A DNA stretch of 64,000 nt, from the NCBI GenBank assembly GCA_000165345.1, contig CM000431.1, positions 640,001-704,000 of the forward strand. Direction: 5' to 3'. How positions within the stretch are numbered: the stretch's first letter is position 1; each line of letters begins with the position of its first letter. Below the pieces are notes generated by a model that had not been told where the DNA came from, did no database searches, and worked only from the letters and a program-made list of their open reading frames with translations. Below are positions 11,064-11,083 of this stretch, in pieces. The position numbers and the translations under genes are program-made.

Positions 11064-11083
11064 GCGCCAAAACAAGCGCCAAA
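11064..11083. promoter_or_regulatory. Two tandem E2F-like GCGCCAAA(A) motifs, 52-70 bp upstream of the histone H3 ATG.
   Basis: ctGCGCCAAAAcaaGCGCCAAAtaa; relative to H3 these read TTTGGCGC twice. Confidence 0.5.

Follow-up and report, generated by a model that had tools for sequence, protein, structure and literature searches.

The genome of Cryptosporidium parvum is compact, about 9 Mb in size, and AT-rich. Its most over-represented upstream motif is E2F-like: Oberstaller 2013 (PMC3734150) lists it as Motif 3 (DTTGSCGCCH) and Motif 4 (TTTGGCGGGAAV), and condenses both to TGGCGCCA. According to the same paper it precedes genes belonging to 163 of 200 expression clusters (2,379 genes), and the clusters of motif-bearing genes show no particular expression pattern; its first sighting is credited there to Bankier 2003, and that of the E2F/DP genes to Templeton 2004. 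The E2F/DP genes reported for C. parvum in the literature comprise cgd1_1570, cgd6_1430 and two DP genes, all on chromosomes other than the one analysed here (PMC3734150; PMC12246861). A 2025 review names Cryptosporidium as the sole apicomplexan genus that retains E2F/DP and adds that most regulators await functional validation (PMC12246861). Protein-binding microarrays carrying the C. parvum AP2 domains that were tested indicated that the E2F-like motif is not AP2-binding (Oberstaller 2014, PMC4117751). According to Xiao 2025 (bioRxiv 10.1101/2025.01.17.633476), it outranks every other motif both in the ATAC-seq peaks of sporozoites and in the spacers between the ORFs of polycistronic transcripts, and E2F/DP expression in the parasite peaks in the early asexual stages. 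The canonical E2F/DP site of animals and plants reads TTTSGCGC or TTTSSCGC, with the structure of Zheng et al. 1999 cited in PMC3734150. The E2F-like motif in the stretch of DNA analysed here is already known: it is the most abundant C. parvum upstream motif, described since 2003–2013.

Enrichment of the GCGC core in promoter-bearing spacers

The window, the whole stretch of DNA that was analysed, covers 64 kb of C. parvum chromosome 3. Its gene map, drawn from long ORFs, Pfam matches and gene calls at syntenic loci in other Cryptosporidium species, contains 33 genes separated by 30 spacers, which total 4182 nt at 26% GC; the genic DNA comes to 56,935 nt and has 31% GC. The intergenic AT content of 73.8% is slightly lower than the value of above 75% given by an earlier, sequence-only reading of this DNA. 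Pfam identities are clear for H3, the proteasome subunit, Myb, TPR, TBC, the SPO11 Toprim protein and the P4-ATPase, and weak for CENP-C (CENP-C_C, E = 0.0011, under the curated cut-off); the ORF at 31334–32644, the Nsa1/WDR74 gene, encodes a product with 100% identity to a hypothetical protein of C. parvum Iowa II, and its C. hominis orthologue bears the chromosome-3 tag CHM_3g2640. Pfam found an E2F_TDP domain in none of the window's proteins, so there is no E2F/DP gene within these 64 kb.

Several features of the map stand apart from the motif. The sole Rfam match over the window is a tRNA: a tRNA-Arg (anticodon TCG; ARAGORN and Rfam) at 6338–6412 on the plus strand, within the 388-nt spacer between the Nup35-type RRM and Myb genes, which is also kept in the locus of Cryptosporidium sp. 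SRR31860986. The right end (61754–64000, ~2.2 kb) and the left end (1–636, ~0.6 kb) have no long ORF, GCGC or Rfam match and could be intron-rich genes or long spacers; the right-end block contains three ACCGC words. At 13432–13435 the stop codon of the TBC gene runs by one base into the start codon of its neighbour, a methyltransferase gene (ATG at 13435), and only a motif-free gap of 33 nt (55489–55521) separates the primase-like gene from the 976-aa Rrn7-like gene. Either pair may give rise to a dicistronic transcript of the kind described in C. parvum.

The word [G/C]GCGC (SGCGC) makes 18 strand-hits in the 4.2 kb of intergenic DNA and 13 in 57 kb of genic DNA, a 19-fold difference in density (Fisher P = 9e-14). 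The intergenic and genic counts are 13 versus 9 for GGCGC, 4 versus 0 for GGCGCC and 5 versus 0 for TTGGCGC. When each spacer was shuffled 1000 times with its dinucleotides preserved, 3.7 SGCGC, 1.9 GGCGC and 0.26 TTGGCGC were expected against the 18, 13 and 5 observed, and each observed count was reached in 0 of 1000 shuffles. When the k-mers of the spacers were ranked de novo, with an order-2 Markov model as background, GGCGC, TGGCGC/GGCGCC and TGGCGCC came out on top for k = 5, 6 and 7, respectively. The enrichment upstream relative to shuffled or coding background that the sequence-only reading had named as its check is borne out by three controls independent of one another: the fold difference, the shuffles and the k-mer ranking.

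Each of the 16 GCGC tetramers between genes belongs to a spacer that bears a promoter. Such spacers number 21, and 9 of them contain the 12 distinct SGCGC sites, 26–126 nt (mostly 30–68 nt) upstream of the nearest ATG. The nine convergent (3′–3′) spacers, 688 nt in total, have no SGCGC site, an absence that is not significant when taken alone (P = 0.12).

A chance origin was ruled out by whole-window shuffles, by the genic comparison and by the dinucleotide shuffles of each spacer, and a general GC-island effect was rejected because CCGG, GGCC and GGCGG, GC-rich words that served as controls, are not over-represented in intergenic DNA. The same results bear on the reading of the GCGC islands as a structural or compositional by-product, in the form of nucleosome-excluding, start-associated or chance GC clusters. 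Short GC-rich words in DNA of 74% AT, at positions tied to the distance from the ATG, are what it would produce; it is barely credible when CCGG and GGCC, of the same composition, are unenriched, when shuffles never reach the observed counts, and when it is a specific word, not GC content, that is kept in otherwise diverged spacers (proteasome beta2 and CENP-C-like). The GC-rich words upstream of histone H3 and its neighbours are real, enriched and conserved promoter elements.

The histone H3 double site and its neighbours

Two tandem copies of the E2F-like word stand upstream of histone H3, as the sequence-only reading had described for 11064–11083; they lie 52–71 nt from its ATG.

10605–11012, minus strand: histone H3 coding sequence (Pfam Histone, E = 1.5e-46), downstream of both sites
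11064–11071, minus strand: proximal E2F-like site TTTGGCGC, 52–59 nt 5′ of the ATG (11012)
11076–11083, minus strand: distal E2F-like site TTTGGCGC, 64–71 nt 5′ of the ATG

Both sites read GCGCCAAA on the plus strand, which is TTTGGCGC on the H3 sense strand, and the distal site is a direct repeat of the proximal one at a spacing of 12 bp. Each copy is exact and fits the consensus TTTSGCGC, as had been claimed; the palindromic sites elsewhere in the window match TGGCGCCA or DTTGSCGCCH. The two TTTGGCGC copies, 12 bp apart, would act as a double site serving histone H3. Orthologues of H3 in C. felis, C. muris and Cryptosporidium sp. SRR31860986 have a site 46–82 nt 5′ of the gene, the positions being −68 and −56 in C. 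parvum and −46, −82 and −66 in the other species. Conservation at H3 rests on the presence of a site and its distance, because an alignment of the upstream region from five species does not bring the sites into register.

The remaining sites of the window are as follows.

6074–6078, minus strand: CGCGC, 26 nt 5′ of the ATG (6048, minus strand) of the Nup35-type RRM gene (5626–6048)
7786–7795, minus strand: GAGCGCCAAC, which reads TTGGCGCTC along the Myb strand, within the divergent promoter (98 nt) shared by Myb and TPR
9566–9572, plus strand: TTGGCGC, 63 nt 5′ of the proteasome beta2 ATG (9635) and 8 nt past the TPR stop codon
11370–11376, no strand assigned: GCGCGCG, 27–33 nt 5′ of the ATG (11403) of the TFIIS-zinc-ribbon gene
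12271–12287, plus strand: two weak TGCGCT copies (GCGC at 12271 and 12284; TTTGCGC at 12281–12287), upstream of the TBC gene
16045–16050 and 16059–16064, no strand assigned: two palindromic GGCGCC cores in the 52-nt spacer 16016–16067, 30–49 nt 5′ of the RRM ATG (16015, minus strand)
17876–17880, plus strand: CGCGC, 38 nt 5′ of the ATG (17918) of the 1201-aa gene
31274–31280, plus strand: TGGCGCC, 54 nt 5′ of the Nsa1/WDR74 ATG (31334)
42882–42889, plus strand: TGGCGCCA, ~121 nt 5′ of the ATG (43009) of the CENP-C-like 874-aa gene
52458–52462, minus strand: GCGCC, in the TLDc/411-aa divergent promoter

The window contains three copies of TTTGGCGC (11064, 11076 and 16046), four of GGCGCC and five of TTGGCGC. 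Every instance listed by the sequence-only reading is present where it was placed, and the analysis adds three sites to that list: GCGCGCG at 11370–11376, CGCGC at 17876–17880 and GCGCC at 52458–52462. Some of the listed sites match the E2F motif in part only (TGCGCT at 12271 and 12284, CGCGC at 6074); the boundaries of the motif are fuzzy because several sites are half-sites or degenerate forms such as TGCGCT and CGCGC. The spacer between SPO11 and the P4-ATPase, both identified by Pfam, is indeed free of the motif, with zero GCGC from 43914 to 47493.

Two of the annotated neighbourhoods deserve a further word. The gene at 11403 contains an intron and has a Pfam Zn_ribbon_TFIIS match. In the RRM spacer, the second GGCGCC core ends 4 nt short of the kinesin stop codon, and in the 52-nt and 76-nt spacers the element starts 4–10 nt from the stop codon of the upstream gene; the 3′ end of the upstream gene and the promoter of the downstream gene must therefore overlap. 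Such an overlap, read from the arrangement of the genes, would fit the polycistronic transcripts that have been reported.

Conservation across the genus and the word ACCGC

The syntenic loci compared were those of C. ubiquitum (two), C. felis, C. bovis (two), C. muris, Cryptosporidium sp. SRR31860986, C. canis and C. andersoni. Enrichment of SGCGC between genes recurs in the orthologous loci of C. felis (8-fold) and sp. SRR31860986 (11-fold), and in those of C. bovis and C. muris all SGCGC matches are intergenic. With a site scored as present when it lay within 130 nt of the ATG, and about 17 promoters compared, 17 of 24 orthologous promoters had a site where C. parvum has one, versus 3 of 21 where it has none (Fisher P = 1.5e-4, a value that overstates independence, given the kinship of the species and the small sample, and that shared ancestry inflates somewhat). 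Orthologous promoters conserve the sites, as expected of members of the E2F-like family held by purifying selection. Distances from the ATG are also similar between species.

Proteasome beta2 site, positions across species: −67, −68, −63 and −68
Nsa1 site, positions across species: −59 and −58
Nup35-type RRM gene site, positions across species: −30 and −33
1201-aa gene site, positions across species: −42 and −44

At the proteasome beta2 spacer, the block TT.GCGC is invariant across four species, where the rest of the alignment shows 65% identity; about 15 nt 3′ of the C. parvum TTGGCGC lies a separate element, 'taccctcac' (ACCC[T/C]CAC, 9588–9596), which is kept in all five species compared. 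The site of the TFIIS-zinc-ribbon promoter is kept in four of four orthologous promoters, and GCGC in the TBC spacer in four of four orthologous spacers. The CENP-C-like site retains aGCGCC in the three species examined there (C. ubiquitum, C. bovis and C. andersoni). Just 5′ of its GGCGCC, at 42856–42876, 'ccccacattttcatgtggaag' is common to C. ubiquitum and C. bovis and combines a G-box-like CCCCAC with the inverted repeat CCACAT...ATGTGG. The Nsa1 orthologue of C. ubiquitum has TGGCGC at −58, and sp. SRR31860986 keeps both the Nup35-type RRM site, as CGCGCAAG at −33, and the 1201-aa gene site, at −44, where C. muris has GCGCC. The RRM spacer of C. felis contains GCGCC and CCCGCC. In the Myb/TPR spacer, C. 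felis and sp. SRR31860986 keep GGAGCGCCAA; C. bovis has CCCGCCCAAA in its place and C. muris CCGCC. At the TLDc/411-aa position C. ubiquitum and C. bovis have ACCGCC and C. andersoni CGCGCC. The exchange of GGCGC for GGCGG at the same place in orthologues is seen at two promoters, Myb/TPR (GCGCCAA to CCCGCCCAAA in C. bovis) and TLDc/411-aa, and both forms are published variants of the Oberstaller 2013 E2F-like motifs.

A TGCGCT also occurs at 53905–53908 upstream of the primase-like gene, where it is kept in C. parvum and C. ubiquitum. The retention of TGCGCT, a GCGC without the G/C flank, in the TBC and primase-like promoters suggests from the sequence comparison that such words may be degenerate but functional members of the motif.

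A second word, ACCGC, behaves in a related manner. The spacers contain 10 copies of ACCGC/GCGGT where 1.75 would be expected, a count reached in 0 of 1000 shuffles; the word is 6-fold denser there than in genic DNA and is found mostly in promoters that lack GGCGC. Sites of the form [A/T]ACCGC are found at 17751–17755, 22323–22327, 31051–31073, 38090–38145, 42041–42045, 42898–42902 and 47170–47174. Five species keep the word upstream of Rpb1, and it is also conserved at the DAGK, DnaJ/TRAPP and SPO11/P4-ATPase spacers; at some orthologous positions, such as the TLDc/411-aa spacer, it swaps with GCGCC or CCGCC; the SPO11/P4-ATPase spacer has GCGCC in C. andersoni and ACCGC in the other species. 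ACCGC is absent from the 25 motifs of Table 1 in Oberstaller 2013 (PMC3734150), and a literature search for ACCGC/GCGGT returned unrelated primer matches only. A tentative proposal, to which we attach rather little confidence, makes ACCGC a variant half-site recognised by another pairing of E2F and DP. If it were true, a single small family of factors would define at least 13 promoter-bearing spacers out of the window's 21 and, by extension, most promoters of this compact genome.

The binding factor and the comparison with E2F/DP systems

The sequence-only reading, which spoke of a recurrent E2F-like promoter motif, holds up: the motif is enriched and conserved, and the designation agrees with the interpretation published for C. 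parvum. The reading preferred here, with a probability of roughly three in four, is that the sites act as promoter-proximal cis-regulatory elements and belong to the E2F-like family published for Cryptosporidium, in its forms TGGCGCCA / DTTGSCGCCH and the variant TTTGGCGG, with E2F/DP as the factor that binds them. The sites exist, are enriched, lie near start codons and are conserved; we infer E2F/DP as the binding factor and activation as its effect. The enrichment of the motif in ATAC-seq peaks lends indirect support to occupancy by E2F/DP. In such a mechanism, E2F/DP winged-helix heterodimers would recognise the GCGC core and the T-rich flank beside it, 30–120 nt 5′ of the start codon, and would thereby open or switch on the promoters, which are very short in this compact genome.

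The elements might instead be functional but bound by a factor other than E2F/DP, such as a zinc-finger or other uncharacterised protein, their resemblance to E2F sites being coincidental. Binding by E2F/DP is a prediction, most regulators awaiting functional validation (PMC12246861); many sites are mere 5-mers (GGCGC or CGCGC) outside a full TTTSGCGC context, and E2F transcript profiles fail to follow some motif-bearing regulons (PMC3734150). Yet the H3, RRM, proteasome and Myb sites have the T-rich flank of the E2F consensus, the GGCGC/GGCGG swap among orthologues mirrors known E2F site variants, and Cryptosporidium is the sole apicomplexan genus reported to have both E2F/DP and the motif. 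No binding to the motif was seen with the AP2 domains that were assayed (PMC4117751), and ApiAP2 as the binding factor is ruled out by those published microarray data. That some other factor binds the elements is, on this evidence, unlikely.

The presence of sites at H3 and the CENP-C-like gene had also been taken as a hint of a narrow regulon, confined to S phase or the cell cycle as it is in animals and plants, of which H3 and CENP-C would be typical targets. Both H3 sites are indeed perfect, as is the TGGCGCCA of the CENP-C-like gene; sites occur too at the gene neighbouring the kinesin and at Myb, and E2F/DP expression is reported as highest in early asexual stages. The hint gains no support, because the motif-bearing genes are functionally mixed: sites also precede the genes for proteasome beta2, Nsa1, RRM, TPR, TFIIS-zinc-ribbon and TLDc proteins, so that the targets are not limited to DNA replication, chromatin and cell-cycle genes, and the CENP-C match is itself below threshold. 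The primase-like gene (Herpes_UL52 domain, 53980–55488) has only the weak TGCGCT, and genome-wide the spread of the motif over 163 of 200 expression clusters follows no particular pattern (PMC3734150). A dedicated S-phase regulon is therefore very unlikely.

Membership of the published E2F-like family, the reading preferred above, leaves little discovery value in the motif as such, which has long been described and lately tied to open chromatin. The word 'histone' does not occur in PMC3734150, and in the accessible parts of the published motif papers histone H3 is unmentioned and site-by-site conservation across the genus was not found. The local detail added here is that sites are kept at the same promoters and distances genus-wide, gastric C. 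muris and C. andersoni included; the H3 double site is therefore a good, compact candidate for mutational and binding experiments.

With the canonical E2F/DP site of animals and plants, the sites of the window share the [C/G]GCGC[G/C] core and T-rich flank, a promoter-proximal position, tandem or double sites, and a histone gene as putative target. They differ in that C. parvum has no recorded retinoblastoma-protein orthologue and lacks most E2F partners, according to PMC3734150, and in that its motif is found on a large share of all promoters, not on a cell-cycle regulon, the sites in the window being predicted ones. The correspondence with the C. parvum E2F-like motif (Bankier 2003; Mullapudi 2007; Oberstaller 2013; Xiao 2025) is closer still: organism and upstream location are the same, the sequences TGGCGCCA, TTGGCGCC and TTTGGCGC are the same, and neither is confined to one functional class. 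There is no substantive difference between the two, and the sites of the window are instances of that motif.
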